In this document: in pieces, positions 8,110 through 58,875 of the stretch
Numbering within the stretch: position 1 is the stretch's first letter
Layout of the letters: the number at the start of each line of letters is the position of its first letter
Assembly: GCA_964505535.1 (NCBI GenBank)
Contig: CAZDIU010000002.1
Coordinates: forward strand, 3,303 to 67,302
Length of the DNA: 64,000 nt
Direction of reading: 5' to 3'
Source of the DNA: an uncultured Desulfobacterales bacterium
GTDB lineage: Bacteria; Desulfobacterota; Desulfobacteria; Desulfobacterales; Desulfococcaceae
Notes under the pieces: model-generated
Databases searched by the model: none
Told to the model about the DNA's origin: nothing
The model's input: only the letters and a program-made list of their open reading frames with translations
Made by a program: the position numbers and the translations under genes

Positions 8110-8127
8110 TAATCCCCCGGCAAAGAG

Positions 8128-8688: not shown

Positions 8689-9197
8689 ATAATACCTCCC
8701 CAAACCGTAACGCTGTTTCCTGCGGAAAGCCCGGTAATATGGATTCCCACTGATTTTGCGCCTGCCAGATCCCAGTACAGCAGAGGCGACCAGTATTCTG
8801 TGTCATCATCTGTGAAATATGTGGCCCCGCATTCTGTGGTTTTGCTGCTCAGAATGGCATAGATTTCTGTGGCAGGTTCTGCGGTTATGTCCGTCAGTTT
8901 CACGACAGGAGTAAGCGTTGCGCTACCTCCGGCAAGAAAATGACTGACACGGCAGACCAGTGTGCTTCTGTCGCCAACCGTAAGCATGTTCGCATTGAGT
9001 TCAGAGCAGTAATTCAGATCCCAACTGTCTGTACTGCTTCTTGGTCTGATTTTCTTCATTTCCGCATAGCGTGAAACCTGCGTGACAAGCTGGATCACCC
9101 TGGCTCTGTCCTGTTCATCGGTTTCAATGGCCGTGCGGGTGGCAACCACGTCCCCGCTTCTGCCGTCATCCACTTTTGTTCCCTGTTCCATATTCAT
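8685..9197 (-). CDS. virion protein, unknown function
   Basis: 170-aa ORF, tightly packed in the tail gene block. Confidence 0.5.
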   Translation of the reverse strand: MNMEQGTKVDDGRSGDVVATRTAIETDEQDRARVIQLVTQVSRYAEMKKIRPRSSTDSWDLNYCSELNANMLTVGDRSTLVCRVSHFLAGGSATLTPVVKLTDITAEPATEIYAILSSKTTECGATYFTDDDTEYWSPLLYWDLAGAKSVGIHITGLSAGNSVTVWGGII

Positions 9198-9201
9198 ACT
9201 C

Positions 9202-10539: not shown

Positions 10540-10543
10540 TTGC

Positions 10544-12756: not shown

Positions 12757-12759
12757 TAT

Positions 12760-13290
12760 TTACTCCACGGAGGCCACAGACACAATGACCGGATAGGGAA
12801 TGGGATCATCGCGGGGCGGGACAGAAGCCACAATCTGGGAATAGTTGCTGGAGTAACTTGCCAGCGCAACCGCAGTGCCCACCTGAGATGCTTTCAGGGA
12901 ACCGTCAGCCGTGACCACCAGCGCACCCAGGGATTTGCCCAGCCACCGGTAGGAAAAACCGCCCATGATTGGCTTGGAGGTATTGGCCGTGTCTGAATTG
13001 CTGAAGGTAACGGATTCATCTTCCACGTTCACAGCAAAATCACCGGACGGGCCTGAAACCGATCCGTCTGTGATTTCTGCTGCGCGCAGTTCCAGATCGG
13101 ACGGCTGCCGGAAACATCTGATGTAAATGGATTCTCCGAAGTCAAACTGTGACTTGGGTTCGCCTTCCGCGTCAATGTTCAGGGAATCATCCAGTTCCAG
13201 GGATATGCTGGCGTTTTCGTCTGTCCCTTCTCCGTCTTCAACATCTTTGGGACTTAAATTGATTGTGAGACTTGCGTATGCTTTAGCCAT
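12760..13290 (-). CDS. tail protein, N-terminal paralog of 11863-12756
   Basis: MAKAYASLTINL...LELDDSLNIDAEGEPKSQFDFGESIYIRC aligns with MSKAFASLQISV...LELADELNLDSGGKAKTEFVFGDKAYIRA. Confidence 0.5.
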   Translation of the reverse strand: MAKAYASLTINLSPKDVEDGEGTDENASISLELDDSLNIDAEGEPKSQFDFGESIYIRCFRQPSDLELRAAEITDGSVSGPSGDFAVNVEDESVTFSNSDTANTSKPIMGGFSYRWLGKSLGALVVTADGSLKASQVGTAVALASYSSNYSQIVASVPPRDDPIPYPVIVSVASVE

Positions 13291-13561
13291 CTATGATTAC
13301 CTCTTTCCTGTCGGAAGTGTCAGTCATGCCGATGTCAGATGTGATGTACCGCTGTCCGTCCGACATGGTGGTGAGCAGCACCATCGCACCGATTTTCACT
13401 TCTCCGATATTGCTTTTGCAGTTCTGCACGGTTTTTCCGTATTTCACGGCATAGATATTATTCCCCATCGCACGGATGACCTCACCTGTCACCATGCCCC
13501 GGGCTGTGACAGACTGATACTGCCGGAAAACAAGAAAATTTGTCAGGGAATAAGAAGACAT
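13283..13561 (-). CDS. small tail/baseplate protein
   Basis: 92-aa ORF overlapping both neighbours in the operon. Confidence 0.45.
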   Translation of the reverse strand: MSSYSLTNFLVFRQYQSVTARGMVTGEVIRAMGNNIYAVKYGKTVQNCKSNIGEVKIGAMVLLTTMSDGQRYITSDIGMTDTSDRKEVIIDG

Positions 13562-15549
13562 TTCACCGCCTCAATTTCATTCCATATGGCAGGGCCGTCA
13601 AAGGTGATGGTGACTCTCTGCACTTTGTACGCGCCAATGACTTCTATCCGGGGAACGTTGATTTCAATAATGGTTCCGTCACTGCATCTGTCATGATACG
13701 GGGCACGGATGGAAACCTTGTGCCGGTCATATTTCTTTTCATCAATTTCCGCTGTGCCGCGTTCCACAGCCGCAGATTCCGAACTGATCATCACATCTGA
13801 AATCGGGTCCATCTCTTTGGGCGGATCCTCCGCTGTCCGGACATACACACACAGTCCGGACGGGTCGGTTCCGGAATATCCCAGCACGGCAATCAGGGCT
13901 TCCACCGAATCTGTATCCACCCGGTATCTGTGATATTCGCTCTTATACCGGATGTCACAGATGGCCCACATGCCGTCTATGGTCAGGTCTTTGGAATACG
14001 GGGTAAAGAAAACATCCCCTTCGCCCGGGACTGCGCCGATCCATTTTTTCTGAAGAATCTGCGTGATTGGCTTGGACACAGAGCCGGTTCCCTCTTTGAA
14101 CTCCACCCGTTCATAATACGGATCGTCCTCTTTTTCCATTACAGGAAATTCAATTTCGTGTTTGCCCAGAAAGGTTACGCCCTCTCCGGCTGTGGCAAAG
14201 GCTTCCACATTCTCCGGCTGGATACCGTTTTTCCAGTACACCCGCAGGTGAACCGTCTGTCCAACTGTCGGTCCGGACTCCTCCAGTTCAATTTCCGGGG
14301 TTTCCAGGCTTTCGGTTCCCACATTGGAAATTTCAACAGCAGTGTAACCTTCCCCTTTCACACGCTCCGCAGAGATGGAATCCTCAACAACGCCTGTGCG
14401 CTCATACACAATTTCCCCGACTGTGATTTTGCAGGGCCGGGCAATCCATTTGCGCCGGACAGTCAGCGTGCCGTCATCAGCGGATCGCACAATGGAGCCA
14501 ATGGCAGATGCGATTTTCTGCACTGCCTCAATGCTGTCAGAAGGCCAGTCTGCGGTTTCCGGCAATACCCAGTCCAGAGTGCTCCAAGTCACAGTGCCGT
14601 GTTCAATCATGGCACTGGCAAGAGCGGAAGCTGACATTTTCCCGTTCATGGCAGGCGCAGACCAGCCCGGACTGAATTCTGCATTGTTCCGCACACCCGG
14701 ACTGTAACCGTCCAAAGTAAATGTATTTTCTCCGGATGCCTTGCGGTTGTCAATGGTAAACAGAAAGATACGGGACCCGACACGGATTTCAATTCTTGCC
14801 TCACCCGGTTTCACATCCGGATCACATTCAAAGAACAGATCCATATCCGATGATGTGATGGAAACCGTGTTGTGCACATAGCTTTCATCCAATGTGACAG
14901 AACATGCTGTGACCCGGTGTTTGCAGGGCTTCCCGTCAATGTAAATTTCATACCCCCCGGTAATGGGCGGAAGTCCTTCCGGTGTTTCCGGTGCAGGGAT
15001 TGCTTCGGTATCTTCCGCTGGGAAAATGACAGAAGAAGCAGGTTCTCCGATTTGATTCAGCAGGGAAAGCCGGGACCGCAGCAGATATTTTTCCTGAATT
15101 TCTGTAAACAGATGCAGCGGAACCATAATCGGCTCGTTCCGCAGAGTGGTCAGCACAGAAAGTCTGCTGAATATTCGGGTGGCTGCCTGTTCCTCCGGCA
15201 TTTCCGTCAGCAGACTTAACCTGCTCAGAATACGGGTGGCAGATGCGGATTCAGGCATTTCCGTCAGCAGATGCAGTCGGCTGAATCTGCGGGAAATTTC
15301 TGCCGAATCTGCCAGTTCGCACAGCAGATGCAGAGACGTGAATATCCTGGCCGCCTCTGCCGGGTCCGCCTGCAGTTCACACAAAACAGAGAATCTGCTG
15401 ATGATCGGAATGCCGAAATTGCAGACAGAACAGATTCCTGTGCGGGTTTCCGTTCCTGTCTGAACAGAAAGCAGTGTCCGCAGTTCTGAAGATCCCAGCA
15501 GATGCAGCCTTGTTTCTGACTGCTTGTTTCCGGAAAAAAGAAGCAGCAT
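13543..15549 (-). CDS. large tail/baseplate protein with N-terminal ~19-aa tandem repeats
   Basis: 668 aa. The N-terminal ~150 aa contain 6-8 repeats of the type RIFSRLSLLTEMPEEQAAT. Confidence 0.55.
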   Translation of the reverse strand: MLLLFSGNKQSETRLHLLGSSELRTLLSVQTGTETRTGICSVCNFGIPIISRFSVLCELQADPAEAARIFTSLHLLCELADSAEISRRFSRLHLLTEMPESASATRILSRLSLLTEMPEEQAATRIFSRLSVLTTLRNEPIMVPLHLFTEIQEKYLLRSRLSLLNQIGEPASSVIFPAEDTEAIPAPETPEGLPPITGGYEIYIDGKPCKHRVTACSVTLDESYVHNTVSITSSDMDLFFECDPDVKPGEARIEIRVGSRIFLFTIDNRKASGENTFTLDGYSPGVRNNAEFSPGWSAPAMNGKMSASALASAMIEHGTVTWSTLDWVLPETADWPSDSIEAVQKIASAIGSIVRSADDGTLTVRRKWIARPCKITVGEIVYERTGVVEDSISAERVKGEGYTAVEISNVGTESLETPEIELEESGPTVGQTVHLRVYWKNGIQPENVEAFATAGEGVTFLGKHEIEFPVMEKEDDPYYERVEFKEGTGSVSKPITQILQKKWIGAVPGEGDVFFTPYSKDLTIDGMWAICDIRYKSEYHRYRVDTDSVEALIAVLGYSGTDPSGLCVYVRTAEDPPKEMDPISDVMISSESAAVERGTAEIDEKKYDRHKVSIRAPYHDRCSDGTIIEINVPRIEVIGAYKVQRVTITFDGPAIWNEIEAVKCLLIP

Positions 15550-15552
15550 GGC

Positions 15553-16974
15553 TTACTGTGAAATTACGCAGATGCCGACATGATTGACCGGGGCCGCGCT
15601 GGTGGATGCGGGGACAATCTGTTTTGCCCAGATTGGATACTCCCCGACATGTGTTTTAAAAGTGATCTGCTTTCCGGTCACGGGCGAACCCATCCAGCCG
15701 GTGTTCAGCAAAGTGAAATACGGGGTTCCGGTACTGGGATTCACCGGGGAAAAACCGGTGCTGATGTTTCCGGTTCCCACAGATCCGGAAAACAGCCCGG
15801 CACAGATGAATGCAGTGGAAGAGGTAAAGGTGATTGTCCAGTCATCTTCCACACAGCCCTTGTTCAGACAGGTCAGAGGATACGTGGTATCATCATACAG
15901 ATTGTCCGCGTCTGTGAACGTGTCATACGTTGCCACTGCCTCGGCCAGTTCCGGCAGACAAGCGGCAATGTAAGTGTTTGCAGTGAGATAGGGATTTGCC
16001 ACCTGCTCCGCAAGGGTCACGGTGCATACACTCCCTGACCACGACCAGAATTTGTCGTAATAAGTGCAGGTGATATCGGTGCTGTTGTCCGGAGGCTGTG
16101 TAAACGTAATCGGGGTTGTCCATGCGCCGGTGGACATGTTGAGTTGACCCGCGGAACAGTACCCGGAGCAGGAACCGTCCGCATTGACCGTAACTGTCTG
16201 GGCTGTTCCGCTGACGGTCACTGAGATAACCGGCCGGTAATCGTCAAAGGGATTCACGCCGTTGGTGATGTTGGCAAGGGTGCTGAGTGTCGGAGTCTGA
16301 CTGCTGCCGTTTCCGGCGCCGATCACTTCGTTTTCCGTAAGACCCGTGGGCAGCCGTCTGAATTCGTAACTGCCGGTGTCAACGGTTTCCACTTCATCGT
16401 TTCCCAGATACCGGCCTTTGGGATAGTTGATGTCATCGGTATAGGCGATCCGTGTCCAAGTGTCTGTGATAAACTGGACAGAATCTCCGGGTTTCACATC
16501 CGCAGCAATGGTCTGGGACGCCTTGTAATAATTGCTGATATACAGCAGCCCGCCCGGGACAAAACCGGATTCTGTGCCCTCAAACTCTGCGGACACGGTT
16601 GTTTCACCGCCGGAAAGCGCAGTGGAAAGTTTGCCGCATCCCACCAAAGTCGGATTGCCTGCGGAAATGGTGGCCTGCGTATCCCTTGCCGCACCTTTGG
16701 CAAGATAATATCTGTCCCCCGCGTTGCTCTGGTTGGTCAGAAAGGCAGTCACCAGATAAGCGATTTCCGCAGGGGTCACTGCGCTTCGGTTCTGCCAGAA
16801 GGCTTTCCGCCATCTGGTAATTCCTGCTGCGCGCTCTGCTGCTGCAACCATGGGGAACAGATTGTTCAGTCCCCATTCTGTGACAGCAGATGCACTGCTG
16901 CGCCCGCCGTTTGCTCCGGTGTCTGTCACGGTTGCGGATTTTGCGTATTTCACATCAGTTGTTTCTATTGACAT
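15553..16974 (-). CDS. tail fiber/tip-like protein
   Basis: 473-aa Thr/Ser/Gly/Ala-rich ORF in the tail block. Confidence 0.5.
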   Translation of the reverse strand: MSIETTDVKYAKSATVTDTGANGGRSSASAVTEWGLNNLFPMVAAAERAAGITRWRKAFWQNRSAVTPAEIAYLVTAFLTNQSNAGDRYYLAKGAARDTQATISAGNPTLVGCGKLSTALSGGETTVSAEFEGTESGFVPGGLLYISNYYKASQTIAADVKPGDSVQFITDTWTRIAYTDDINYPKGRYLGNDEVETVDTGSYEFRRLPTGLTENEVIGAGNGSSQTPTLSTLANITNGVNPFDDYRPVISVTVSGTAQTVTVNADGSCSGYCSAGQLNMSTGAWTTPITFTQPPDNSTDITCTYYDKFWSWSGSVCTVTLAEQVANPYLTANTYIAACLPELAEAVATYDTFTDADNLYDDTTYPLTCLNKGCVEDDWTITFTSSTAFICAGLFSGSVGTGNISTGFSPVNPSTGTPYFTLLNTGWMGSPVTGKQITFKTHVGEYPIWAKQIVPASTSAAPVNHVGICVISQ

Positions 16975-16978
16975 TGTT

Positions 16979-17719
16979 TCACTCCGTTACTGCGGGTTCT
17001 GCCGGAAGTATATTTTCCGTTGTGGAATTGTCATTGTCATGTGTGCTGTTATCGGAATTGTCCGAATTGTCGGACTGGTCGGAATTATCGGTTGTGTTCC
17101 CGGAACTGGTGATGTTCAGCGTCCGGGTGTCGGTTGTGGTGCTGGTTACAGAATTGTCGGTCGTGTTCCCGGAATCTGACACGGTGACAGTTTTGGATTT
17201 GTCCTCGGTGTTACCGGAATTGGAACTGTCTGTGCTGGAATTGCCGGAATCGGAAACAGATACGGTTTTATTGGCCTGATTTGCATTGGTGACGGTATTG
17301 GAAACATTGCTTACCGTGCCGGATACATCCCGGATGGCAGAGAATATCTCATGCCCCAGAACGCCTGCGGTGACACCGTAAACAGCGGCTTTGCCAAATT
17401 CCAAAGCATATTTTGCGCCCGGAGCCGGGTCCGGAGCAGACGGCAGGTTTACATTGAACACCGGCACTGCCTCAGATGTGTCGCTGCCGATGAAGATCAC
17501 ACTGCCCTGTCCGGATGCCGAATGCTGAATTGCCGCAATCTTCAGAGCAGTCTGCTGCCGGATTTCCTCTGCCTTGAGATTGTAATAGGCAGCCGCAGCC
17601 TGCGCCTGTGCTGCGTTGATTTGAGACACAGACTGGGAATAGCTCTGATAGGTTTTGTCATATCCTGCACACCCGGAAAACAGTGTCAGGGCAATGGCAA
17701 TGAGGGTGTTTGTTTTCAT
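16979..17719 (-). CDS. lipoprotein with C-terminal S/D/N/T-rich repeats
   Basis: Internal start MKTNTLIAIALTLFSGC (lipobox LFSG|C). C-terminal repeats SDSGNTTDNS...SDNSDNSDNS. Confidence 0.6.
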   Translation of the reverse strand: MKTNTLIAIALTLFSGCAGYDKTYQSYSQSVSQINAAQAQAAAAYYNLKAEEIRQQTALKIAAIQHSASGQGSVIFIGSDTSEAVPVFNVNLPSAPDPAPGAKYALEFGKAAVYGVTAGVLGHEIFSAIRDVSGTVSNVSNTVTNANQANKTVSVSDSGNSSTDSSNSGNTEDKSKTVTVSDSGNTTDNSVTSTTTDTRTLNITSSGNTTDNSDQSDNSDNSDNSTHDNDNSTTENILPAEPAVTE

Positions 17720-17720
17720 T

Positions 17721-18062
17721 TTATGCCGCCATTTTGCTGTCAAAGGTTCTGCGCATGTCAAACTCTGCTTTTTTCCCGGCGTTCCAGTTTTTTACTGGCC
17801 GCAGATAGCCAACCACGCGGGAATACATTTCGGTTTCCTGATCATATGCCGGATTTTTTGCATAGCACGCAGGGCATTTTATTTTCCGTTCTCCGGATTG
17901 CAGCGTGTAAACCGCGCCGCCTTCAATGTGAAATCCGTCTTCCAGAGCATCAATGAAAATTTTGATTTTCTTTTTGCAGTCACAGCACGGGCCTTCAAAA
18001 AAAACACCGCATTCCCACGCGTTCTGTTCATCAAAAAAAGTGTGCAGTTGTTCAATGTTCAT
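17721..18062 (-). CDS. stand-alone NrdD C-terminal-like domain (Zn ribbon + glycyl-radical motif)
   Basis: ATG at 18062 after AGGAG. Has CCDC...CPAC followed by SRVVGYLRPVKNWNAGKKAEFDMRR. This matches the NrdD C-terminal pattern RVCGYL...(F/W)NxGKxxE...R around the radical glycine. Confidence 0.6.
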   Translation of the reverse strand: MNIEQLHTFFDEQNAWECGVFFEGPCCDCKKKIKIFIDALEDGFHIEGGAVYTLQSGERKIKCPACYAKNPAYDQETEMYSRVVGYLRPVKNWNAGKKAEFDMRRTFDSKMAA

Positions 18063-18063
18063 G

Positions 18064-18477
18064 TCATATCTCCTGAAAGTTGATGGTGAACCCGTAAAAA
18101 TTGTCCGTGTCTTCATAACTCGGTTTTCCTGCCTGAACCGGTGAGGCTGATACAGCGGGAGGGTTTTCATTGGCAACAAAACGCACACGGAACCATTGGC
18201 CCCAGTATTCCAGAAAATACAGTGCTTTGGGAACAGAGGCCAGTGCCAGAGTTGAACGGACAACAGCCCATGTAACCCGCCCGCGGGAACCTTCCGGGGC
18301 CAGGGTAATCATGCGTCCGTAGGCATAATCCTCAAACACAATGGGCGTATCTGCCAAAGATTTCACCGCAACAGCTTTGACCCCGGTATGCGAAGTCATA
18401 TCCTGCATTGCCAGTTCATCCGGCAGTGTCACCAAAATTTCTGTTTTTTCAATATCCCAAATGCGGATATGATCCAT
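18064..18477 (-). CDS. tail protein (first minus-strand gene after the tape measure)
   Basis: Start MDHIRIW after GGGGGAG. 137 aa. Position is equivalent to lambda gpM or a distal tail protein. Confidence 0.5.
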   Translation of the reverse strand: MDHIRIWDIEKTEILVTLPDELAMQDMTSHTGVKAVAVKSLADTPIVFEDYAYGRMITLAPEGSRGRVTWAVVRSTLALASVPKALYFLEYWGQWFRVRFVANENPPAVSASPVQAGKPSYEDTDNFYGFTINFQEI

Positions 18478-18565
18478 ATTCTCCCCCATTTGTTTTACCT
18501 GCATTGCCGAAAAACCGGCTGTTTTCAGGATCGCCTGAAAATACGAAAAAAGCAACAGAAAATAC

Positions 18566-18594
18566 TTGCAAAAAAGCGGTTTGCCGTGTATGCT
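18566..18594 (+). promoter_or_regulatory. candidate promoter of the plus-strand accessory island
   Basis: TTGCAA (18566-18571), 17 nt, TATGCT (18589-18594), about 30 nt upstream of the 18625 start. Confidence 0.45.
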
Positions 18595-18624
18595 CGGAAA
18601 AACTTGGGACTGCAAAAAAGGGAG

Positions 18625-19008
18625 ATGATAAGAATGCAAATTGCAAGGGAAGAACCAAGACAGATAAACAAAAAGGCTGTGGCCGCAGTTGTGTCTGCCT
18701 TTCTGCTGACCGGACTGCTGTTTGCAGCATACAAAAGCCCGTTTTACCGGGAGTATGTTTTTAAAAAATCCGCCACAGCATACCTGCGGGAACGGATGAA
18801 AGACCCTGATTCTCTGAAGATTCTTGAATGGGGAAAATTTGAACCTGTTCCGGAAAAGGACAGGGCGGAATATTCTTTTATGAAAGCGGCGCACTGGAGT
18901 GTCAGTGTGAAATACTCAGGCACAAATTCTTACGGCGGCAGGGTAAGCACTGAGGTGAATCTGCTGCTGAACGCAGAGGGGGTATGCTATTATGATTACG
19001 GGGGGTGA
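18625..19008 (+). CDS. membrane-anchored small protein (moron; possible exclusion factor)
   Basis: ATG after AAAGGGAG. One N-terminal TM segment AVAAVVSAFLLTGLLFAAY, then a ~90-aa soluble domain. Confidence 0.55.
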   Translation: MIRMQIAREEPRQINKKAVAAVVSAFLLTGLLFAAYKSPFYREYVFKKSATAYLRERMKDPDSLKILEWGKFEPVPEKDRAEYSFMKAAHWSVSVKYSGTNSYGGRVSTEVNLLLNAEGVCYYDYGG

Positions 19009-19225
19009 AAAAGAAAGTAAGAATATGAATTGCAGAATATGGTCTTTTGCATTTTATTCAATTTGTTATGAATCTATTATATGGGGTGTTTTTGGGTGGG
19101 GTGTTTTCGCAAAAGGAGCTTCTGCGTGGTGGTTTATTTTAGCTGTCTTTTTATCCATTTCCCAACTTAAACCAAAGCATTTTGGAATCAATCCATGCTT
19201 TGACAGAACACCTGTGGCGGAGTGA
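18992..19225 (+). CDS. small integral membrane protein
   Basis: 77 aa with two Trp-rich hydrophobic segments. The start is uncertain (18992 or 19025). Confidence 0.45.
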   Translation: MITGGEKESKNMNCRIWSFAFYSICYESIIWGVFGWGVFAKGASAWWFILAVFLSISQLKPKHFGINPCFDRTPVAE

Positions 19226-19230
19226 TAAAA

Positions 19231-19292
19231 ACATAACCCATCGTTCAAGCGGACGGGCAAAAAGACGCCCGCCGCTTAACTCTATGTTATGC
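19231..19292 (+). mobile_element. integron attC-like site B
   Basis: R'' ACATAAC, CCATC, L'' GTTCAAGCGG, hairpin CGGGC/GCCCG, L' CCGCTTAAC, TCTAT, R' GTTATGC. CATAAC and GTTATG are exact complements. Confidence 0.75.
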
Positions 19293-19356
19293 TTCTTTAA
19301 ATTAAGAAAGGAGATAGCCATTGTATATTTGTAATTTAAAAAAGAGTGAGGAATAT

Positions 19357-20271
19357 ATGAAAATTACGTATTATACTTATTTTGTAAAAAATAACAATGG
19401 CATGTGGCATCATAATTTACTTCCTTTTCTGCATAGATTTGTAGAATATAATAATCCAGAATTTAAAAAAACATTCACTTATTCTCAAAATCAATTGTAT
19501 CTTTTTAAATTAACTAATCATATTTTCTTGTTTGTAATCACAAAAGACTCTGAAATAATAAAAACTATAGATTCAGAAGCATTGAATTATGGAGATATTT
19601 ATCAAAGGTTACAAGAAGATGAGCGGCTTGGATTTGCATCTTATATATATGTAGACAATTTGTTTTACGGAATAGGCTCAACTATAGGTGGTCCTAAAAA
19701 CACAGTATGGTTAGATTTTATAAATCAAATATTTATGAAGTTAAATATCGGTAAATATACGATTGATTCATTTCCATTACCATCAATGGCCACAAGAGAT
19801 GAAATATTAAAAATGGATATTGTAGGCAGGACTACTTTTGAAATAGATAACTCTAATGATTTTGCGAAACAGATTATGGGGCTTTTTTGTGCTGATGTCA
19901 ACGAAATTGACTGTCTTGAGGTAATAATCAAACCAAAAAGTAAAAAAAGCATAATAAACAGCTTTGCTAAATTATGTGGCAGTCTCAATGATGATGGGTT
20001 GAAAAAATTTTTGGTCAAAGCAAAAGCATCTATTGAAGATTCTTTAAAAGACTTCTATATTGTTGGGAAAGGATATGTTTCTGATAGCATTAAATCTCGT
20101 GATGATTTTAATATCTGTGAAGAAATTACTGATAAAATATCTAATAATCCAATATTAAATGAAAAAATTCAAGAATTCATAATAGATGAAAGGTTTTATA
20201 GCGATGAAATTCAAGATATTACTTGTTTTAATAGCATTGATAATTGGAGGCGTATTCTACTTAATAATTGA
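19357..20271 (+). CDS. rexA: RexA-like abortive-infection/exclusion protein
   Basis: Aligns by eye with lambda RexA (recalled from memory). LYLFKLTNHIFLFVITKD matches LYIHKIDGKTFLFTKTND. DERLGFASYIYVDNLFYGIGSTIGGPKNTVWLDFI matches DESLGFPSFLFVEGDTIGFARTVFGPTTSDLTDFL. IVGRTTFEI...LEVIIKPKSKKSI matches FIGRTTVKV...LDIVIKPKFKRDI. The gene is very AT-rich. Confidence 0.75.
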   Translation: MKITYYTYFVKNNNGMWHHNLLPFLHRFVEYNNPEFKKTFTYSQNQLYLFKLTNHIFLFVITKDSEIIKTIDSEALNYGDIYQRLQEDERLGFASYIYVDNLFYGIGSTIGGPKNTVWLDFINQIFMKLNIGKYTIDSFPLPSMATRDEILKMDIVGRTTFEIDNSNDFAKQIMGLFCADVNEIDCLEVIIKPKSKKSIINSFAKLCGSLNDDGLKKFLVKAKASIEDSLKDFYIVGKGYVSDSIKSRDDFNICEEITDKISNNPILNEKIQEFIIDERFYSDEIQDITCFNSIDNWRRILLNN

Positions 20272-20626
20272 TACCGCCATCCCTTTAGATGTGCTTAACA
20301 AATTGTTTAGCAAAATTGATATTGTAAGCACAATAATTGCTACTTTCAGCTTTACTATGGCTGGTTTTTTAGCAACAATAATCGCGTTGCTTTTAGGTTT
20401 AAGCAATAGACATTTCTTTAAAAAATACAAACATTATGGACATTTAAAAAACCTACTGTTCTTATATTTTTCTACTTTGGTCTTTCTGTTTATCAATTAC
20501 GGAATCAGCATCTTTTCGTTTTGTAATATAATACTGCTTAAAATAATGATAAGTATATCATTTTTAAATATAGTCCAAATTTTTTTTATTAGTTTGGCGG
20601 CATATGTATTAAGCAAAAAAGCATAA
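20204..20626 (+). CDS. rexB: RexB-like four-TM membrane protein
   Basis: About 140 aa with 4 hydrophobic helices. FTMAGFLATIIALLLGLSNRHFFKKYKHYGHL resembles lambda RexB YAGTMIAILIAALTFLIGSRTRRLAKIREYGYM. Lies immediately 3' of rexA. The start is uncertain (20186 or 20204). Confidence 0.7.
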   Translation: MKFKILLVLIALIIGGVFYLIIDTAIPLDVLNKLFSKIDIVSTIIATFSFTMAGFLATIIALLLGLSNRHFFKKYKHYGHLKNLLFLYFSTLVFLFINYGISIFSFCNIILLKIMISISFLNIVQIFFISLAAYVLSKKA

Positions 20627-20676
20627 CCAGTCGTTCCACCGGACGGCGAAAGCCGCCGGTGAACTTGTTGTTAGAT
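20621..20676 (+). mobile_element. integron attC-like site C
   Basis: R'' GCATAAC (contains the rexB stop), CAGTC, L'' GTTCCACCGG, hairpin CGGC/GCCG, L' CCGGTGAAC, TTGTT, R' GTTAGAT. The L''/L' changes are compensatory relative to sites A and B. Confidence 0.75.
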
Positions 20677-20691
20677 GTATGGAGGTAAATC

Positions 20692-21366
20692 ATGATAGCT
20701 GCTTTATTCGTTGAAAAAAACGGATGCTATTTTAATATGCCCGGAGTTGACCCGTGGGATGAAGATCGGGACGCTCGTAAATATCAAGGGCCTTATCCGG
20801 TTGTGGCGCACCCGCCATGCCAGAGATGGGGGAAAATGTGGGCAGGCCAGCCATTATGGATAAAGAAGACCGGACAAAAGAAAAGGAAAGGCGATGACGG
20901 AGGGTGTTTTGCTTCTGCGATTAATGCGGTCCGTGTTTATGGTGGGGTTCTGGAGCATCCGTTTGGCAGCCACGCCTGGCCCTATTTTGGACTGACAAAA
21001 CCGCCCCGGTCTGGCGGATGGGTCCAGGCTGATAATTATGGCGGGTGGACTTGTTGTGTTGAGCAAGGGCGTTACGGCCATTATGCTCCAAAACCAACTT
21101 ATTTATATGCTATTGGGTGTCAGTTGCCGGAACTTGAATGGGGTGTTTACAAAGTCAGCGATGATGATTTTCCAAAGTGGGCTATGGAAAAATATGGGCG
21201 TGAAAAATGCAGAAGAGCCGGGTTGCTTGCATTTAAAGGCGGTAATAAAAATAGTTCACCACGCATCAGCACCCCGGAAAAATTTAGAGATTTACTTATA
21301 TCGATAGCAAAAACATCTAACCAGCGCATGGAGCGGACGGCAAACAGCGCCGCCGCTCACCATTAA
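20692..21366 (+). CDS. C5-cytosine-methyltransferase-fold protein (divergent; function uncertain)
   Basis: 224 aa. Has AHPPCQRWG (motif IV-like PCQ), VLEHPFGS (motif VI ENV-like) and VEQGRYGHYAPKPT (motif VIII-like). The N-terminus AALFVEKNG lacks the FxGxG SAM loop. Confidence 0.4.
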   Translation: MIAALFVEKNGCYFNMPGVDPWDEDRDARKYQGPYPVVAHPPCQRWGKMWAGQPLWIKKTGQKKRKGDDGGCFASAINAVRVYGGVLEHPFGSHAWPYFGLTKPPRSGGWVQADNYGGWTCCVEQGRYGHYAPKPTYLYAIGCQLPELEWGVYKVSDDDFPKWAMEKYGREKCRRAGLLAFKGGNKNSSPRISTPEKFRDLLISIAKTSNQRMERTANSAAAHH

Positions 21367-21374
21367 CGTTACCC
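21315..21374 (+). mobile_element. integron attC-like site D (more divergent)
   Basis: R'' ATCTAAC, CAGCG, L'' ..GGAGCGG, hairpin CGGC/GCCG, L' CCGCTC(A)CC, R' GTTACCC. Overlaps the 3' end of the 224-aa ORF and the tape-measure stop codon. Confidence 0.55.
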
Positions 21375-24300
21375 GTTCGGTTTCTTCCTCTGCTCCTTGG
21401 TCAACGCCCGCATGAGTGACCGTGCGGTTTCCTCATCACTCCACATTTTATAACTGCTTCCGCCCACTGTCAAATTTACCGTGCCGTAATGCGGCGCGCC
21501 TGCCGCTGCCATTACCGGCCCGCCTGCGGCAAAATGCTGAACAGGCGCAAAACTTGGCATCTGCGGCAGAGCAAACCGGAATTCCGGCATCACAAGTCCA
21601 CCCTGGGCATATCCTTTAATCCGTGCCGCTGCGGTTGACAGTGCAGACGTGATGCGCTCACGGCCCGCATTCTGCAAACTCCGCAGGAAATGGAAAAAGT
21701 CAACCCCGAAGGATTTCACCACAGGCTTCGGGATCACGTATTCCCCCGGCGTCAGCATGGCCGGGACAGTATCACCGTCACCGGAACCGGGGACTTCACC
21801 TCCGCCTGCCATTGCCACAGACGCTCCGGTTTCCCCTTGTTTGCTCAGTTTGTCCTTCAGCGCAACCAGTTCCATGAACTTCTTGCGGGTCTTTTCCGTG
21901 TTGATGTCCAGTTCCACAGGATTGCTGAGTTCTTCCATCAAATCCCTGGCCTCTTCCGCTGCTTCCGCAAGGCCCTTTTTCACCTTGTCATCAATCACAT
22001 GCCCGATGGCTTCCAGCATTCCGTTGGTTTCTTCCATTGCATTTTTGATGGAGTCTGAATTTTTTTCTGTTTCTGCCTGCGCTTTTTCCAATACCTGCAC
22101 ACGGGCGTCAGACACGGACACCATCTTTTTCTGAATGTCCTCAATTGCGGATATGGCTTTCTTTGTGGAAGCCTCCTTGGACACCAGAACCTTATCACCC
22201 TCTTTGATTTCGGTTGCCATTCCTGCCGCCGCATCCTTGGCCTCTTTCAGCAGACGGGTTTTTTCCTCATACTGGGCATTGCTCATGGCGTCTGCTTTGG
22301 CAATCTTCTCATTGATCTCCGCCCATTTGTCATTGTACGCCTGCTGCTCGGTCATTGTCCCGCGCTTCAAGTCACGGATCTTCTCTTCCGTTGACATCTG
22401 CTCATCAGCAAGAGATTTCCTGACATTTTTGATTTCCTCTGCAATCTGCTTTTCCATTGCCAGAGAATCCTGCAGTTCTTTCTGCAAAGCGTCTTTGGCC
22501 TGCCTGTACATCTCCTTTTTCTTTTCCAGCACGGCCCTGTCTATGCCTTCAACCTCTCTGGCATAGTCTTTCTGAACCTTTGCGGCCCCGTCAGAAACAT
22601 CTTCCTGTATATCAAGGCTTTCCTCCAAAGACTTTTTCCGGTTTTCCGTGTTCTCCTGATACAGCAGGTTGAGCGCTTCATTGGCCTCTTTTTCTATCTG
22701 CACCATGTCAATGCCATTCTTCTTTGCCAGTTCCGGATTCATCGCCCACATGTTGGCGCGCTCAATGGCATATTCGGCATTCAGCTTTTCCTGCATGGTG
22801 AGGGCTGTTTTTGTTTCCGCTGTCTCAGCGGACAGAGCCTTTTTCTTGGCCCCAAGGGTTTCCGCAATGCGGCTGTTTTCTTTGTCGGCAAACTGGTCCA
22901 GCATGGTTTCCTGCAATCCCAACTGTGACCGTATGGCCGTGACCCGTTCCTCAGACATCTTCAACTGTACTGCCCGAATCTTGTCCGCATAGGTCATGGA
23001 CGCCTGCAGATCAGCTTCGGTCATTCCCGGTGAACCCTTGGGGGACTGCTGATAGGCTGCTGCCAGTTGGATATTCCGCTGTTTTATTGCCTCGATTTCC
23101 TGTGCGGACATATCCGAGAGGTTCCCGACCGATTCTTTCAGGGATGCCTCAAACGCCTTTTTCCCAAGAGCAAACCGCTGATCCTCGGACAGTCCGGCAG
23201 TGTAAGCCGCATATTTTTCCGCATTGCTTTTGCGGATTACATCCAGTTCCTGCTCACTCAGGTCAGAAAGATTCCCGACCGATTCTTTCAGGGATTTGAA
23301 GAACGCAGATTCACCGACAGACTTCCCTTTCAGTTGGGATTCATAGAATTTTGTCTCTGCTTCCTGCTGCATGATTTCCAGCCGGGAGAGTTCTTCCTGA
23401 TACGCATCCAGTTTGTCCTGTGACGCCTGCTGGAGCCGCTGGGTCTTTTCCTCAATCTTTTTCAGAACAGATTCCAGAGAGGACTCCGCCACTGCCTTCT
23501 GTTCATCTTCCACCTGCTTCTTGAACTGGTCAAATGCGTCCTTCCGGATTCTGTTGATGGTCGCGGACTTCTCCTCTTCGGAAAGTCCCATTCTTGCGGC
23601 GGACTTTTCAAACTCCTCCACCTGCTGCTGTGTGCTTTCCACCATTTTCCGGAAATCCAGTTTCCGCATGGCATCCAGATTGTTGTAAAACACCATGTAC
23701 TCGGCCTGCGCCTTGGACACAGCGGTTTTCTGTTCTTCGGTGTAATCCGCCAGAACAACTTTGACCCCGGCCATTGCCTTGGCAAATGCAGGCCCGACAT
23801 CTGCCCCGGCTATCTGGGCAAGGTCTTTGTTCATGTCAGACGCCTGCTTTTTCATGATGTCATTGGCCGTTGCCTGGGCTTTGGTGATTTCCTCTGTTGT
23901 CTGTGCGTTCTGGGTAAGAATCTGCACATTCTTCTCATACTCGGATTTCAGTATGGTGTCATTGTTGGCTTTGATCTGCTCCACCAGTTCCGTGTTGTAC
24001 GGGTCCTGCTCCAACTGCTTTTTCAGGATTTCGTTTTTCTGCGCGGCAACGGAAGCAGCTGCCTCCAGTTCCTTCTTTGCATAGTCGTTACGCATTTTCT
24101 CTCTGGTGGCCTCAACAATCTTTTTTATCTCCTCTTCATTGTTGGTTTCCATCTGCAGGAATGTCTCAAGCCGGTGAACTTCAGCATTGATCAGTTCCTC
24201 GTTCAGTTCCTTGTTGCTGTCCAGATACTTTTTGTTGCCGGTGACATCGTACAGTTTCTGGTTAAGGGCAATGCGAGCGGAAGCGGTCTTTGCGTCTTCA

Positions 24301-27300
24301 TCCAGTTTGTCCTGATCTTTCTTCCGGGTTTCCGCAATCTCCCGCGCCTTTTCCGCGATGATTTTGTCTGTCAGCTTTTCTGTCTGGTTTTCCAGAAATT
24401 TCCGTGCGCCCTCTGCCATATAGGATTCCTCATAAATGGCTTCTTCTTTGGCACGGAGCTGGTCTTCAAACCCGCCTTTCCTGACTTTCACTTCCTTTTC
24501 CACACCGTCAATGGTCTGCTTCTCTGTTCTTTCAACCCCTTTCATATGATCGGCAATCCTGTTTTCCACTTCCGCAGCATACATGGCATTGACACGTTCC
24601 TCTTTTTCTTTGGCAGACAGATATTCATTGTCATCGGCCTTGGCAAAGGCTTCCACACGTTTGCCGAGGCGTTCCTTGTCCGCCTTCTCGTTGGCTTCGA
24701 TTTCCTCTCTGATAAATCTGTTTTTTTCTTCCAGCACCGCCTTCTGAATACCCACTTCCTTTGTGGCAACATATTCTGCCTGCTTTACCTTCATCTGAGC
24801 GGCAATCACGGCCTCATTGTCCGCGTTGATCTGCTGCACGGCCAACTGCTGCATCACAGTGGTTTTCTCCTTCATTTTCTCCATTTCCTTGTTCAACTGG
24901 TGAACAGTGGGAGAATCCCCCTGATAGGTGCGGGCCAGCATAATATCTTCCTGCAACGCTTTGATGCTTTTGATTTCGCGTTTGTAGTCGTCTATGGCGT
25001 TTTGATTTTCAGTCGGATCAAAACGGAAAAACTTTCTGACAATAGGGATCACACCAATAATGACATTCCCGATTTCTTTGACTTTCATTTTTATGCTTTC
25101 CCATACGATACCAAAGTGCTTTCCCAGAATATCCACGTCCGCCCACATGGTTTGGATAATGTCATCCACTTTGATAAGACCGACCTGGATGTTTCCTATC
25201 CATCGTCCGATATTCCATCCGTCAACAGCGGCCATGATAACACCGAAGACATTGAATATCCTTAGCGCAACTGCACCAATTTTTGTCAGAACAGGCGTTA
25301 TCACTGCAAGGTATCTGGTGACTGTGGGTGAAATCCATTTCAGGAATGTGGAAAGATACCCTTTGGCATAGGTAATCCCGCGAATGACCACCCTGAAAAT
25401 ATCTTCCACCCATTTGGCGACAGTCCCTATAATCCGGTTCTGTCCAAGTCCTCTTATCCATGCCACAGAATAGTTTTTCAGGCCGACAAGACTGTTTTTG
25501 ATCAGATCCACTCCTGCCAGTGCGGCTTTTTTGATTCCTTCCCATACGGCCTTGAACATTCTGCTGAAATCTATCAGCTTTTTTTCGCCCATCACAGCAG
25601 CATCATAACCGATCTGCCCCATAGCTTTCAGCCTGGTTGCTGTCTGCTGTATGGTTTCCCCTGGCAGTGATTTGCTCATCATTTTGAACAAATCTATGGT
25701 TGTCCCCAAGGTTTTGTTCAGCCCGACTGTAAGAGTGTACAGCACCTTGAAAGGATACGTGATTGGCGTTGCGAGCATTTTCCCTAACCTGCCCAGAGAT
25801 GCAAACCCTGCTTTTATTTTGTCTATCATTCCGACAATGGCATTGAATTCCCCTTTCAGAAAACTGCCAAGCCCTGCCTGCGCTCTGGGGCCTGCGTTCT
25901 GAATTGCCGCACCCTCCCGTATCATTCTCTGCAAAGAAATGGTTCCTTTATCATATGCCCTGTTCAGCTTTTCCATGTCGCTGATAAGGGGGGGGAATAT
26001 GTCGCCGTGCATGGCTCTGAACCATGCGAACCAGTGGATGTTCCAAGATTTTACCGTTTCGGAAATCGGTTCCGTGTATTCCTTTATTTTATTTGCACCC
26101 TCCTTCATGACTTCCGCAGCATCTTCTATCCTGCTGGCAAGTTCTTTCTCCCATGATTTCGGGAGCAGAAGGTCTGTTATCTTTATCGCAAGGGCGTTGT
26201 TCTTTAACACATTGGCTGTTTTTTTAAGAGCAATGGCAATGTATGATGGCAGGTTCAGTGAAAGTTCTGCCATCTTCCCATATATACTCACAACAATTTC
26301 TGTGATTTCATGGAACACACTGTATCCCGCTTCTGTAGTGGTGGCAGCCCAGCCTGCCACACCGATTGTTTCCCATGCAACCGACATCGCCATCATTCTG
26401 TCATAAAAAGTCTCAATCCCCTTTATTACCCTGCCGGTATGAAATATAAAGGAATTTGCTTCGCCTTCTGCAATTTTTATTGCAGTCTGCGATGATTGTC
26501 TTAATATGGCCTCCTTTTTTGCAGAATATTCTTTCAGAATGTCGGCCATTCTGGTGTATCTGTTTTTTTCAGCGTCAACAATCAGTTTGCTCAGACGTTC
26601 AACTTCTCCGGTCATACCCAATTGTTCCGCAATGTCCATCTGGCTTTTCAGTTTGTCTGTCCTGATTTTCAGTGCTTCATCTTCAAATTCCCGCAGTTTT
26701 CTCGTTCTGATTTCATTCATGTCCGCTTCGGATTTGACAACCCTGGCGGTCTTTTCCAGTTCAACGTCTATGATTTTTTTACTGTTTTCCCTCCACAGAT
26801 TGATGTATTCCGTATTCCCGGTCTGCTCATACAGCCTGCGGTATTCTTCCGCGTTCTTCTGTGCAAACCGCACCTGCGTATCAAGAACATTCTGCTGGAA
26901 AATTTCCATATCAGAAAGATATTTGCGATGGGCAAGCTCCGCATCCTTCAGGATGGTGGCATTCTTGACTTCCTCTGCGATCATCATTTTCTGATGATCT
27001 TTCTTCACCTTTTCCAAAAGGTCGGTATCACCGGTTACTTCATACAACTGCTGATACGTTTTTTTGGTGGCGTCCATCCGTTCCAGTTCCATCGCATTCA
27101 TGTCCATGTTGAATGCTTCCTGTGCAAGCGACATTCTTTCGTTGTGATGGTCGGTTTCCTGCTCTATTGCTTCATGATGTTTGAGCCATCCCTGCTGCTC
27201 TTCGGACAGGAGCGATTTCCAGTCAGTGAAAAATGTTGCAATTCTTCCGACTGTTTTCCCAAAGATATTGGCAATAATGCCTTCATGCTCGGCAGCAGCA

Positions 27301-30300
27301 GAAGTCTGTATCGACTTCTGCTGTTCCGCATTCTGATGGAGTATTTTAACCTGCTCCAGCATCTCCGCCCGCATCGCGTTGGCATTTTTTTTCGCAGACT
27401 CGGCACGTATTGCAGAAATTTCATCCTGCATTGCCCTTTCACGCATCACTCTGAGATTGGCTGCTGCTTCTGCACTTTTCAGTGTTTTTGCATTTTTTGC
27501 CTCTTCAGCCGCAAGAAGGATCCTGTTGTTCTCTTCTATCCTTTTGACAAGACTGTCCTGCGCAGACGTGTCTGTTTCCATGGACAATGACTTTTTGAGC
27601 CGGTAGTTTTCCGTGGCAGCAACTCTTGCTGTGGCGGCAAGGATGTTGAGTTCCTGTGTGACAGAAGAGAAATCTGTTTTCACTTCCGGGGGGTTATCTT
27701 CAACTCCTTTCACAAAGTCTCTGATTTTCTGCGCCATTTCATCTGTCTTTTCAGACAGGGGCTTCTCAGATGATCCGTGGCCTGTGAAAGCCACTTTCAC
27801 TTCCGCTGTTTCCGCAGCAGTCAGTCCTCTCCGGAATTCCATCACCTTTGCGGCAATTTTATCCAGTTCTGTATTAACCTGATCCGTGTTCAGTGTCAGC
27901 GGGATGGAAGAGACTGTCAGAACTTTCTGCCGGTAGGATTCCAGGTTTTTTTCTGTCTGTGCAATCTGGCCCCGAACCATTTCCATTTCTGTCTGGAAAG
28001 CGTTCTTCTGTTTTTCCAGTATGTCAATGGTGGCCTTGAACGCATCTTCCATGCCTTTTGCGGCAAGAGATGCCGTGTCCTTTATATCCATGACAGCATT
28101 GCCGTTTTCGTCTTTTACGTCACGGGCAAGGGACTGGAACAGGACAGACGCCTTTTTGACCATATCCTTGTTTCCCTGCTCAATACCTTCGTTAAGCAGA
28201 CGGTTGGCCTCGGCACGGTCATCCAGCCACCGTTCCTCATCGGTCATGGTCTTCTGCTGGATGTTCCGGAGAGCGTCCGCATAAGCGGCATATTCGCCTT
28301 TTATCTCACTGTTTATGCCTTCAACCTGACCCTTCAACTGGTCAAATCTGGTTTTGAGAGAGTCAATGTATTTTTCCAGCGTACCTGCCGCTTTTTCGTA
28401 TGTCTGTTTTATTCCGGACACATAGGTTTCATTCGCAACTTCCATGTACCCCGCAATCTGCCCTTCATATTCTTTGCGGGTGATGACGTTTTCCGCGTAC
28501 AACTGTTTTGCCCGCTCCATGAAATCAGCCACAACCCCCAGAACCTTTTCTTCTCTTGTCCGGGTGTCATTCTCCATTTTGCTGTTTGCAATGAAATAAT
28601 CTGCGTATTCCTCTGCCCGCAAAGCGGCAAGGCTTTTAATTCTGTCCTCTTCTGTTATCTTCAGTGTCCGTGCTGTTTTTTCATATGCACTGGCCTTTGC
28701 GTCCAGGTCCTTCTGGAACTTTACAAAATCCACTTTCTGAACTGCGTCCATTTCCTCATACGCAGCGCGCATGGAATCCGGCATTCTTTCTATGGCTGTT
28801 TTGAAAATCTTCAGTGTCCGGGCGGATGTGCTTTCAATTCTGTCCATTTCCGCAATGTATTTGTCAGACATTGCCTGTATCTGCTTTCCGGACAGGTTGG
28901 CGGATTTCCCCATATCCCCGATATAGGCGATCACCCTGTCACGGGACCATCCCCATTTGGTGGTGAATTCTGTAAGTGTTCTTGTTGTCTGATCAAGCTG
29001 ATCCCGATATGTCTGCTGCGCTCTTTCCACATCAGCATCACTGACAAAAAACTGGCCGAGAACGTCATAGTTTATTGCCGCTGCCCTGTTTACCTCTTTC
29101 TCATATCTCCGTAAGGATTCCGCAGCAGACGCAAACTGATTTTCCAGTTTGTCCATTGCCATTTTGTCCAATATTGCGGACAACTCCTCTGTGCTCAGGG
29201 ACGCGATATCCGCAACATCTGCATATGACCGCACTTCTTTTGCCAAATCAGGAAACTGTTCCGCAAATCTTGCGACTGCCTGCGCAGCATCTTCGTGTGC
29301 GGTCAGAGAACCGGAAGCCTGAATCTCTTTCAGCGTATTGTTGAAATATTCCAAGGATTCATAGGCATTTTTGTAATTGATGGACATTGCCGCAGCAGAT
29401 TCCGCAGCTTTCCGGTTGGCATTGATAAGGACGTTGATGGCATAAACTGCTGCTCCGACTGCAACGATGATCAGATTCAGAGGCGTAAGAACAGCCTGCA
29501 CACCCGCGGCAAGGGCTGTGAAGGCCGCATTTGCCGCGTTTGCATACTGTCCCAACGCTATCAGCCTCTGCACTGCCTGAATAGCCGCAAATCGCATCAG
29601 TTTGGCGTTGAGGAGTTCAACCGCTGTAACAATCAGGTGTACACCGCTTGCCAGTAATCCTATCTGTACCGTCATTTTCCCCCAGTTGGATGCAAGAAAA
29701 ACTTCCGCCCATTCTGTCGCCTTTTTCAGTCCGTCAGCCACAAAATGCAGAAGTCCGCCCACCCCCGCCTGCCCCAGCAGACCGGCAAGAATGGTGGCAC
29801 GGTCAGCAAGATTCTTGAATTTCACGGCCAGACCCTCTGCCTGAATGCCTGCCATTTCTGCAGAGGTTCCGGTTTCCTTTACCATGCGGAGCGCTTCATC
29901 ATAGTCCGACCCTGTGGCAAAACTCTTGACCAGAATGGCCGCTGCCTGCGCCCCTCTGAGTCCGAAATAGTCATACGCCTTCCCCATGTCCACAGCCGCC
30001 TTTTCACTGTCCCACAGCAGGGAAGCCAGATTGGTCAACGCCACGTCCATGCCGACAAGACGCGGGTTCATTTCATCCAAAGCCACACCGCTTGCCATCA
30101 GGGAAGCGGCCAGTTTTTCATTGGGAGAAATCAGTTTGGCAATGACCTGACGCAAGCCTGTGCCGATGGTGGATGCCTGGCTTCCGTGATCCGCCATAAC
30201 CATCATGCTCGCGGCCATCTCTTCCAGAGACATGCCTGCCTCTGCTGCGGTGGTTCCTACGTAGTTCATGGCAATGCGGAGCTTTTCAACGGTGAGCTTG

Positions 30301-58837: not shown

Positions 58838-58875
58838 CCGATTTTTTTAAACTTTTTTCCAAAGGATTGAAAATA

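Follow-up and report, generated by a model that had tools for sequence, protein, structure and literature searches.

Integron-type attC sites and gene cassettes, among them a predicted RexAB module, inside the late operon of an uncultivated tailed phage

Introduction

Antibiotic-resistance genes and, as was recognised more recently, genes of anti-phage defence are known to be stored in integron cassettes, whose movement between cells is less well understood. Within an integron array each attC recombination site is a hybrid, of which the boxes R'', L'' and L' and the G of R' stem from the upstream cassette, the TTxxxx of R' being contributed by the next cassette, with whose own R'' it pairs. 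For phages, the survey by Qi et al. [quoted passage not shown] Among the defence systems which chromosomal integrons are known to store is the RexAB-like cassette 'Sucellos', which is also common in prophages (bioRxiv 10.1101/2024.07.02.601686). Insertion of cassettes by attC x attG recombination at 5'-GWT-3' targets was described for bacterial genomes by Loot et al. (bioRxiv 10.1101/2022.09.11.507474). Here we describe five attC sites, and the cassettes between them, in a phage genome contained in a window of 64 kb (the whole stretch of DNA that was analysed), which is part of the 72.6-kb source contig ENA ERZ17914141 NODE_288; about 8.6 kb of this contig lie outside the window.

The kind of structure is already known from the phage CALINs of Qi et al. 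(PMC9892861), where, as in the window, co-oriented attC sites bracket cargo open reading frames (ORFs) in phages without IntI, cargo of the DNA-modification type occurs, and access of phages to the integron cassette pool was proposed. The window differs by its complete RexAB cargo, by an array which abuts the stop codon of the tape-measure gene in the late operon, and by near-identical variants which differ at G|TT; population evidence of the latter type was not seen in the portion of that report used for comparison. A sequence-only reading of the window had regarded a cassette array in a phage structural operon as unusual. The array exists as claimed; it is less unprecedented than was supposed, since phage CALINs and 'Sucellos' are known.

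With the single attC sites lacking integron integrases (SALINs) and the CALINs arising via attG (Loot et al.), the locus shares an array outside an integron platform and a last attC with a hybrid R' box, composed here of the G of attC and the TT of the target (G|TTA of the tape-measure stop codon). Those insertions were shown on bacterial chromosomes, whereas the presumed event in the window would have had a phage target, and its left junction was not located. With RexAB of lambda and with the 'Sucellos' cassette from the chromosomal integron of Vibrio cholerae, the locus shares a two-gene RexA/RexB module of the abortive-infection type in a phage or prophage, and RexAB-like systems occur both as integron cassettes and in prophages. 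In the window the proteins of the predicted module match the RexA and RexB profiles directly, the module keeps its attC inside the phage, and its closest homologues are only 36–48% identical.

Identification of attC sites

The window contains five co-oriented attC sites. Scores in bits and expectation values (E) are given for two covariance models, R1 and R2:

5713–5775, + strand: attC A1; R'' ACCTAAC, R' GTTGCAC; R1 54.6 bits, E 7e-12; R2 35.3 bits, E 2.5e-8
5859–5943, + strand: attC A2; R'' GTACAAC, R' GTTATGT; R1 35.1 bits, E 1.3e-6; R2 rank 4, E 0.5
19231–19292, + strand: attC B; R'' ACATAAC, R' GTTATGC; R1 64.1 bits, E 2e-14; R2 37.6 bits, E 4.7e-9
20621–20676, + strand: attC C; R'' GCATAAC, R' GTTAGAT; R1 59.6 bits, E 3e-13; R2 27.3 bits, E 1e-5
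21315–21374, + strand: attC D; R'' ATCTAAC, R' hybrid GTTACCC; R1 44.7 bits, E 3e-9; R2 partial match, E 1

Sites B, C and D stand, as imperfect hairpins, where the sequence-only reading had placed them; hairpins form on either strand, with z-scores of -2.7 to -5.1 relative to shuffled sequences. A shared core, TAAC-N12-CGGACGG..CCGCCG-N11/12-GTT, is matched four times in the window (the fourth copy at 5716–5771) and not at all in 100 dinucleotide-preserving shuffles, which argues against chance as the origin of the attC-like elements. With a core pattern derived in this way from the window itself, and with only TAAC and GTT fixed at its ends, at least 120 contigs were obtained from IMG/VR, most of which carry classical GCCTAAC...GTTAGGC boxes although the R boxes were barely constrained. 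Model R1 was constructed from 118 of these sequences. In their alignment the attC structure is paired in 90.9% of the cells, 7 of the 13 L-box pairs are changed on both sides, and the covariation score was reached by none of 500 shuffles.

R1 gave exactly five matches in the window, all on the + strand, with 35–64 bits and E of 1e-6 to 2e-14; the reverse strands of the sites scored at most 21 bits, the + strand exceeding the - strand by about 43 bits. When applied to the estX-psp-aadA2-cmlA1-aadA1 array of plasmid pSTM6-275, the model recovered all five expected attC sites and the qacH site (23–51 bits), and no other match with E below 1 in the 12-kb array region. Since R1 stems from a pattern taken from the window, a second and independent model, R2, was built using only four class 1 attC sites (aadA1, aadA2, psp, qacH) of pSTM6-275. 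Its five best matches in the window are the same five sites, with significance for B, A1 and C. The hits expected by the sequence-only reading at five coordinates of the + strand were thus obtained, all of them with R1 and three at significance with R2. The likeness to attC sites of the aadA type, pointed out in the sequence-only reading, also held: the 61-mer attC-aadA1 was found with 100% identity in at least 1,900 plasmids and aligns to the model positions of the window sites.

Class 1 attC sites of about 60 bp (types aadA1, aadA2, aadA7) share with the window sites the R'' box xxxTAAC, a 5-nt spacer and GTT-C-AAGC..G-A-C.. in the 5' half, and a GC-rich tip, ..GCTTAAC, a 5–6-nt spacer and GTTxxxx in the 3' half, with two bulges at the same positions. 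They differ in the inner stem, which is CGGACGG..CCGCCG in the window instead of CCGACGCC..GGCGCGG, in the R boxes of B and C (CATAAC/GTTATG), and in the phage setting without attI, Pc promoter and intI.

Several details of the layout could be made more precise. The triplets AAC (5' end) and GTT (3' end) are at the model positions in every one of the five sites. The consensus RYYYAAC/GTTRRRY, which had been assigned to the R boxes, holds only in part across the sites: R'' of B and C is RYRYAAC, and GTTRRRY is not matched by R' of B and D; the real sites are overlooked in a strict RYYYAAC...GTTRRRY scan, so that the consensus is too restrictive for the window. The spacers on either side measure 5 nt in A1, B and C; those of D are atypical. 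Instead of the one unpaired C described between L'' and L', there are two unpaired bases of the top strand, C and A, corresponding to G and T of the bottom strand; folding of the bottom strands of B and C showed the bulged T and G, as is expected of the extrahelical bases that determine strand choice in attC sites. In attC-aadA1 and aadA2 the bulged C and A occupy identical model positions. The first bulge is missing from site D, where A/T alone is retained and two L-box pairs are lost; A2 is of a longer type, its central loop being enlarged by an insertion of 39 nt.

The attC family is not confined to this phage. The IMG/VR contigs yielded 323 matches in 100 loci, many of them long co-oriented arrays, and in three contigs (L095, L072, L099) IntI1 homologues of 52–56% identity adjoin the array; the IntI next to the array of L095 scored 474 bits on the integron-integrase family TIGR02249 (cut-off 265). 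The attC family of the window therefore occurs in real integrons. A site about 92% identical to B was present in an ordinary AT-rich cassette array of a contig from the JGI metagenomes. The 30 matches of a genome scan for the B/A1 subtype are spread over widely differing taxa, Desulfobacterales, Pseudomonadota, Nitrospirota and Planctomycetota among them, so that the subtype does not point to a host. The five elements of the window are true attC recombination sites of the integron type.

A further hairpin was considered as a sixth, long and divergent attC and was rejected. It is an imperfect hairpin of 128 nt (60741–60868) within a third AT-rich island (58700–61100, 25–37% GC), following a + strand ORF of 472 amino acids (aa; 59359–60777) without a Pfam or PADLOC match. 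Its R boxes are of the same type as in B and C (GCATAAC ... GTTATGT), and it is attC-like by eye; neither covariance model supports it.

Structure of the cassettes

The carrier of the arrays is an uncultivated tailed phage. The window encodes a major head protein, a protease, the large subunit of terminase, tail proteins, SSB, ParB, a homologue of the beta clamp of DNA polymerase III, and a tape-measure protein of 3190 aa. The main cluster spans 18.6–21.4 kb and has no fewer than two complete integron cassettes, upstream of which are cargo genes of 124 and 77 aa on the + strand; its array, B-C-D, is on the strand opposite to the late operon, between the tape-measure gene and the gene of a 137-aa tail protein, the first late-operon gene downstream of the island. 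The features of both clusters and of their flanks are as follows:

18064–18477, - strand: 137-aa gene of the tail module (gene call on the source contig, PHROG 4408); left phage flank
18634–19008, + strand: 124-aa membrane-anchored protein; first gene of the + strand island
18992–19225, + strand: 77-aa hydrophobic ORF in a stretch of 36% GC, directly upstream of attC B
19287–20670, + strand: RexAB cassette, 1384 bp, 28% GC; predicted RexA 19357–20271, predicted RexB 20186–20626
20671–21368, + strand: 698-bp cassette with a 224-aa ORF (20692–21366; PHROG 12600, 2.5e-71)
21369–30941, - strand: tape-measure gene, 3190 aa (PF10145 PhageMin_Tail on the called product); right phage flank
5770–5937, + strand: 168-bp cassette A1-A2, bounded by G|TT of A1 and A2; 57% GC, no convincing ORF
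5938–6242, + strand: AT-rich segment after A2, 34% GC; 80-aa ORF 6000–6242; the terminase large subunit is next

The boundaries of the cassettes can be read from the R boxes. R' of B (GTTATGC) is the reverse complement of R'' of C (GCATAAC), and R' of C (GTTAGAT) that of R'' of D (ATCTAAC), with 7 of 7 positions in both cases; R' of A1 agrees with R'' of A2 in 6 of 7, and C and D agree with their own R'' in only 4 of 7. Stated for the four variable R-box positions, the agreement between R' and the next R'' is 3, 4, 4, 4 in the window, and 0, 1, 3, 1, 1 between R' and R'' of the same site. The class 1 array used as a control gave 4, 4, 4, 3 and 0, 2, 2, 1, 3, respectively, and the pooled means for five control arrays were 3.73 and 2.74. 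This pairing of R' with the next R'' indicates cassettes joined at G|TT and delimits units of 1384 bp (19287–20670), 698 bp (20671–21368) and, without an ORF, 168 bp (5770–5937); the first two correspond to the bounded units of about 1.38 and 0.70 kb proposed previously. The RexAB cassette begins, after the G, with TTATGC, which matches its own R'' GCATAAC in 7 of 7 positions, and the 698-bp cassette with TTAGAT, which matches ATCTAAC equally well.

As had been noticed, stop codons of upstream ORFs are within R'', namely those of the ORFs before 5713 (102 aa, 5410–5718, with its stop codon inside R'' of A1) and before 20621 (RexB, with its stop codon inside R'' of C). The 224-aa ORF runs through attC D, its last 17 codons being attC sequence. 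At the right end of the array the last R' overlaps the stop codon of the tape-measure gene, in agreement with the previous claim: TTA in R' of D is the reverse complement of that stop codon, and G|TT of D abuts it. The junction G|TTACCC fits the 5'-GWT-3' consensus of secondary sites (bioRxiv 10.1101/2022.09.11.507474).

In the segment 5938–6242 no attC was found downstream, and its 80-aa ORF has no family matches. Its beginning (5938–5975) and positions 3711–3750 (reverse complement) of the related phage contig L161, treated below, resemble each other in their leader, TTATGTGTT..ATAA..AGAGCGATGGGT, behind which there is a ribosome-binding site. The occurrence of this leader in two otherwise unrelated cassettes suggests, from the sequences, a shared 5' element in the cassette pool.

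R' of A2 (GTTATGT) also agrees with R'' of B in 7 of 7 positions, and the 13.3 kb between them were considered as one giant cassette or as a split array. The idea was dropped, since TTATGT/ACATAAC boxes are common to several cassettes of the pool, as L161 indicates, and since the adjacency of tape-measure and tail genes is ancestral, as the related phage L125 indicates.

The distances between neighbouring sites are 1.33 kb (B-C), 0.64 kb (C-D) and 84 bp (A1-A2), within the range used for CALINs (two or more attC sites separated by less than 4 kb). A tblastn search of the window with IntI1 gave only a match of 27% identity to a generic recombinase. This protein (3197–4414) and a second, equally generic tyrosine recombinase (45823–46686) scored 57 and 34 bits on TIGR02249, far below the cut-off of 265, which bears out the claim that no IntI is encoded in the window. 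A complete integron (intI, attI and Pc) is not present there: IntI is lacking, and phage genes flank the arrays. As the 64-kb window contains no integron integrase, the two attC clusters inside the phage genome are CALINs.

Cassette differences between related phages

Four states of the locus could be compared:

Window: 124-aa ORF, 77-aa ORF, attC B, RexAB, attC C, 224-aa ORF, attC D
L125 (JGI), about 70% identity: tape-measure gene, 174 bp, homologue of the 137-aa gene; island absent
L160 (JGI), about 90% identity: homologue of the 124-aa gene and one attC (59.5 bits); the tape-measure stop codon follows about 85 nt on
L161 (Logan SRR32022447), 99.95% identity over 15582–19291 of the window: diverges inside R' of attC B

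The 124-aa gene, whose product has no Pfam, PADLOC or NCBIfam match, is thus common to L160 and L161 and missing from L125; the 77-aa ORF is present in L161 and absent from L160, which also lacks RexAB and the 224-aa gene. In L161, R' of attC B is GTTATGT, compared with GTTATGC in the window, and a different cassette of 31% GC follows, with ORFs of 64 and 294 aa and a terminal attC whose R'' is ACATAAC. R' therefore covaries again with R'' of the downstream cassette. The locus is polymorphic at cassette boundaries between relatives. The comparison of related phages suggested in the sequence-only reading thus revealed cassette-sized differences ending at an R' box, and core phage genes as a rule are without such elements, of which there are five in 64 kb, all beside cargo.

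In L160 (reverse complement, 8790–9165) the interval from the 137-aa gene to the 124-aa homologue is longer by about 375 nt; the additional sequence contains a duplicated promoter-like segment and a long inverted repeat, and ARAGORN found no tRNA in it. The tape-measure protein, with 3190 aa in the window, has 1186 aa in L160 (5428–8988); at either end of the gene the two are homologous again, and the long version showed no tandem repeats.

A distant phage contig, L041 (IMG/VR 3300037851_000840), has the tail families PHROG 6128 and 6079 in common with the window and possesses, at 10599–14916, a co-oriented array of its own, with three attC sites, a DNA methyltransferase, an RNA-ligase-like protein and a regulator of the helix-turn-helix/ImmA type. 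CALINs may therefore be recurrent in this phage group.

Logan assemblies are made with k = 31. In that of SRR5581382 the phage is present as three contigs, corresponding to 5727–19315, 19286–20668 and 20639 onward, which agree with the window at 100% identity and have overlaps of exactly 30 nt. One of them, of 1383 bp (19286–20668), is the RexAB cassette by itself, and the contig ends are all in attC A1, B and C. Given the value of k, overlaps of 30 nt would mean branching of the assembly graph at attC sites. An interpretation of the contig ends as a circular cassette or an excised junction was rejected, the branch points being off by 1 and 5 nt. The predicted junction of a circular RexAB cassette is ..GGTGAACTTGTTG|TTATGCTTCTTT.., and the predicted empty junctions are ..AACTCTATG|TTAGATGTATGG.. 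and ..AACTCTATG|TTACCCGTTCGG..

Cargo of the cassettes

The cassette at 19287–20670 is predicted to encode a RexA/RexB system. RexA matched Pfam PF15969 (1.3e-47) and the PADLOC profile (2e-51), and RexB the PADLOC profile (3e-11), which confirms the rexA-rexB-like pair of the earlier description. Its GC content of 28% deviates from that of the window (49% overall). In the three contexts examined for the closest RexA homologues no direct integron source of the cassette was found; they contained one weak attC-like match only, which does not flank RexAB. A sigma-70-like site is present at 19302–19329, such matches being only about twice as frequent across the region as the shuffle mean. Like morons, the cassettes are probably transcribed from promoters of the island itself; if so, a lysogen would exclude other phages in the manner of RexAB.

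For the 224-aa protein, a fold of the type of C5 DNA methyltransferases had been suggested. The AlphaFold 2 model had a mean predicted local distance difference test (pLDDT) value of 88, and the 50 best Foldseek matches were all C5 DNA methyltransferases, as the suggestion implied; the matches are weak (E no better than 7e-3, template-modelling scores of 0.3–0.38), and no Pfam, NCBIfam or PDB sequence match was obtained. According to the model, the protein weakly resembles C5 DNA methyltransferases. More than 8,000 homologues with 65–84% identity exist, all unnamed and many on phage-sized contigs; invariant motifs of the family are PPCQRWG, LEHP and CCVEQGRYGHY, with no evident FxGxG. Homologues were found inside the cassette arrays of six attC-bearing IMG/VR contigs, and in the three of these that were checked they are opposite to the orientation of the array. 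As a side result, a very large unannotated protein family is marked as mobile cargo.

Origin of the arrays

The best explanation overall, to which we assign a probability of about 0.85, combines the identity of the elements as attC sites and CALINs with insertion and turnover of cassettes by IntI at the phage locus. The host cell would supply an integron integrase in trans, from a chromosomal or a mobile integron. For the first cassette, the folded bottom strand of attC would recombine with G|TT at the tape-measure stop codon as a secondary site, along the attC x attG route with its 5'-GWT-3' target. The resident attC could then be the landing site for attC x attC insertions and replacements, and the content of the locus would in this way turn over among closely related phages. 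The involvement of IntI, the order of events, the expression of the cassettes and a benefit to the host are what we infer.

Several points weigh against this explanation. No IntI is present within the 64 kb of the 72.6-kb source contig which form the window, and the source of a recombinase is a presumed one. The left boundary of the array was not found: upstream of attC B there is no G|TTATGT, only several matches in 6 of 7 positions, and the 124-aa gene is only a possible cassette. Sites A2 and D are significant only in R1, the model derived from this attC subfamily. The closest RexA homologues (36–48% identity) are not between attC sites in the three contexts examined.

The missing clean G|TT junction on the left would also be expected if a ready-made piece of a host chromosomal array had been captured by illegitimate or homologous recombination or by imprecise prophage excision, as has been suggested for some Vibrio prophages, with no action of IntI on the phage. 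Prophages with fragments of host chromosomal integrons were described by Qi et al. (2023, PMC9892861), and the phage of the window has two ordinary tyrosine recombinases and may be temperate. Such a capture is nevertheless unlikely in our opinion, because the array is in the middle of the late operon, between tape-measure and tail genes and not at a prophage end, and because its right boundary coincides exactly with G|TT at the tape-measure stop codon. Moreover, phages of 99.95% identity differ by a cassette replacement which begins inside R' of attC B, a relative of about 90% identity has a single attC at the same locus, and a second cluster exists elsewhere, at 5.7 kb.

Every site is at the 3' end of an ORF, and attC sites can act as weak terminators (cited in PMC9892861), so that regulatory structures of the phage itself, i.e., terminators or insulators around morons which resemble attC by convergence, had to be considered too. 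We regard this as very improbable. On the + strand the sites lack a T-tract, a terminator scan does not call them there, and the asymmetric bulges and spacers would be needless in a terminator; the scores equal those of bona fide class 1 attC sites in two covariance models, and near-identical sites occur in ordinary cassette arrays and beside IntI genes. Only five such elements are present in 64 kb, all beside cargo of deviant composition, and the relation of R' to the next R'' is explained only by recombination at G|TT. The least probable alternative, with next to no weight, is a chimera of metagenome assembly which joined a cassette array to a phage contig. The sequence does come from metagenome assemblies, and attC repeats break assemblies, as in SRR5581382, where the phage is split at three attC sites; yet the three contigs there overlap by exactly 30 nt and are identical to the window, phage genes are on both sides of each array, each of five window proteins that were looked up was found on the same four contigs (50–200 kb) in the same gene order, and the independent relatives L160 and L161 have attC at the same locus. 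Precise junctions, model scores, the relation of the R boxes and independent assemblies therefore speak against all three alternatives.

Relatives and other features of the phage

A cultured relative was not found by megablast or by comparison of capsid proteins: megablast of 18–22.5 kb and 8–32 kb against phage records and Escherichia coli genomes yielded nothing, and identity to the nearest capsid proteins is only about 27–30%. Searches of IMG/VR with the C-terminus of the tape-measure protein and with a 473-aa tail protein, and of JGI metagenomes with RexA, did not yield relatives either. Rfam at gathering thresholds gave no match anywhere in the window, and no tRNAs were found in it.

Some further genes may be mentioned. 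A 113-aa protein of the tail module (17721–18062, - strand) matches only the C-terminal glycyl-radical region of the anaerobic ribonucleotide reductase NrdD (PF13597, 5.5e-11) and has, in addition, a zinc-ribbon-like CxxC pair. A TROVE-domain (Ro60-like) protein and a Thy1 thymidylate synthase (553–1275 and 1747–3213) adjoin the integrase; no Y-RNA-like or other Rfam family was detected near these genes at gathering thresholds. Between genes of the replication module, a stretch of 25% GC (56900–57400) has no ORF of 120 aa or more and contains a perfect palindrome of 16 nt at 57023–57038.

Conclusions

New in this locus are attC sites of class 1 quality, a complete predicted RexAB cassette which, in a phage, has retained its attC, the position of the insertion within the late operon, and a cassette replacement between near-identical phages. 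The five attC sites and the two cassettes are concrete substrates for experiments. The case supports the notions that phages can pick up, exchange and carry integron cassettes, and that the same defence modules move between integrons and prophages.

A more far-reaching proposal is tentative, and we consider its chances to be slightly below even: the phage lineage may keep, in the interval from the tape-measure gene to the distal tail genes, a fixed hotspot which serves as a cassette platform without an integrase. There, by means of IntI supplied by hosts, phages would be engaged in a continual exchange of cassettes for defence and counter-defence, among themselves and with bacterial integrons. 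If this is true, phages would be active members and vehicles of the cassette pool, and not occasional carriers of dead attC relics.

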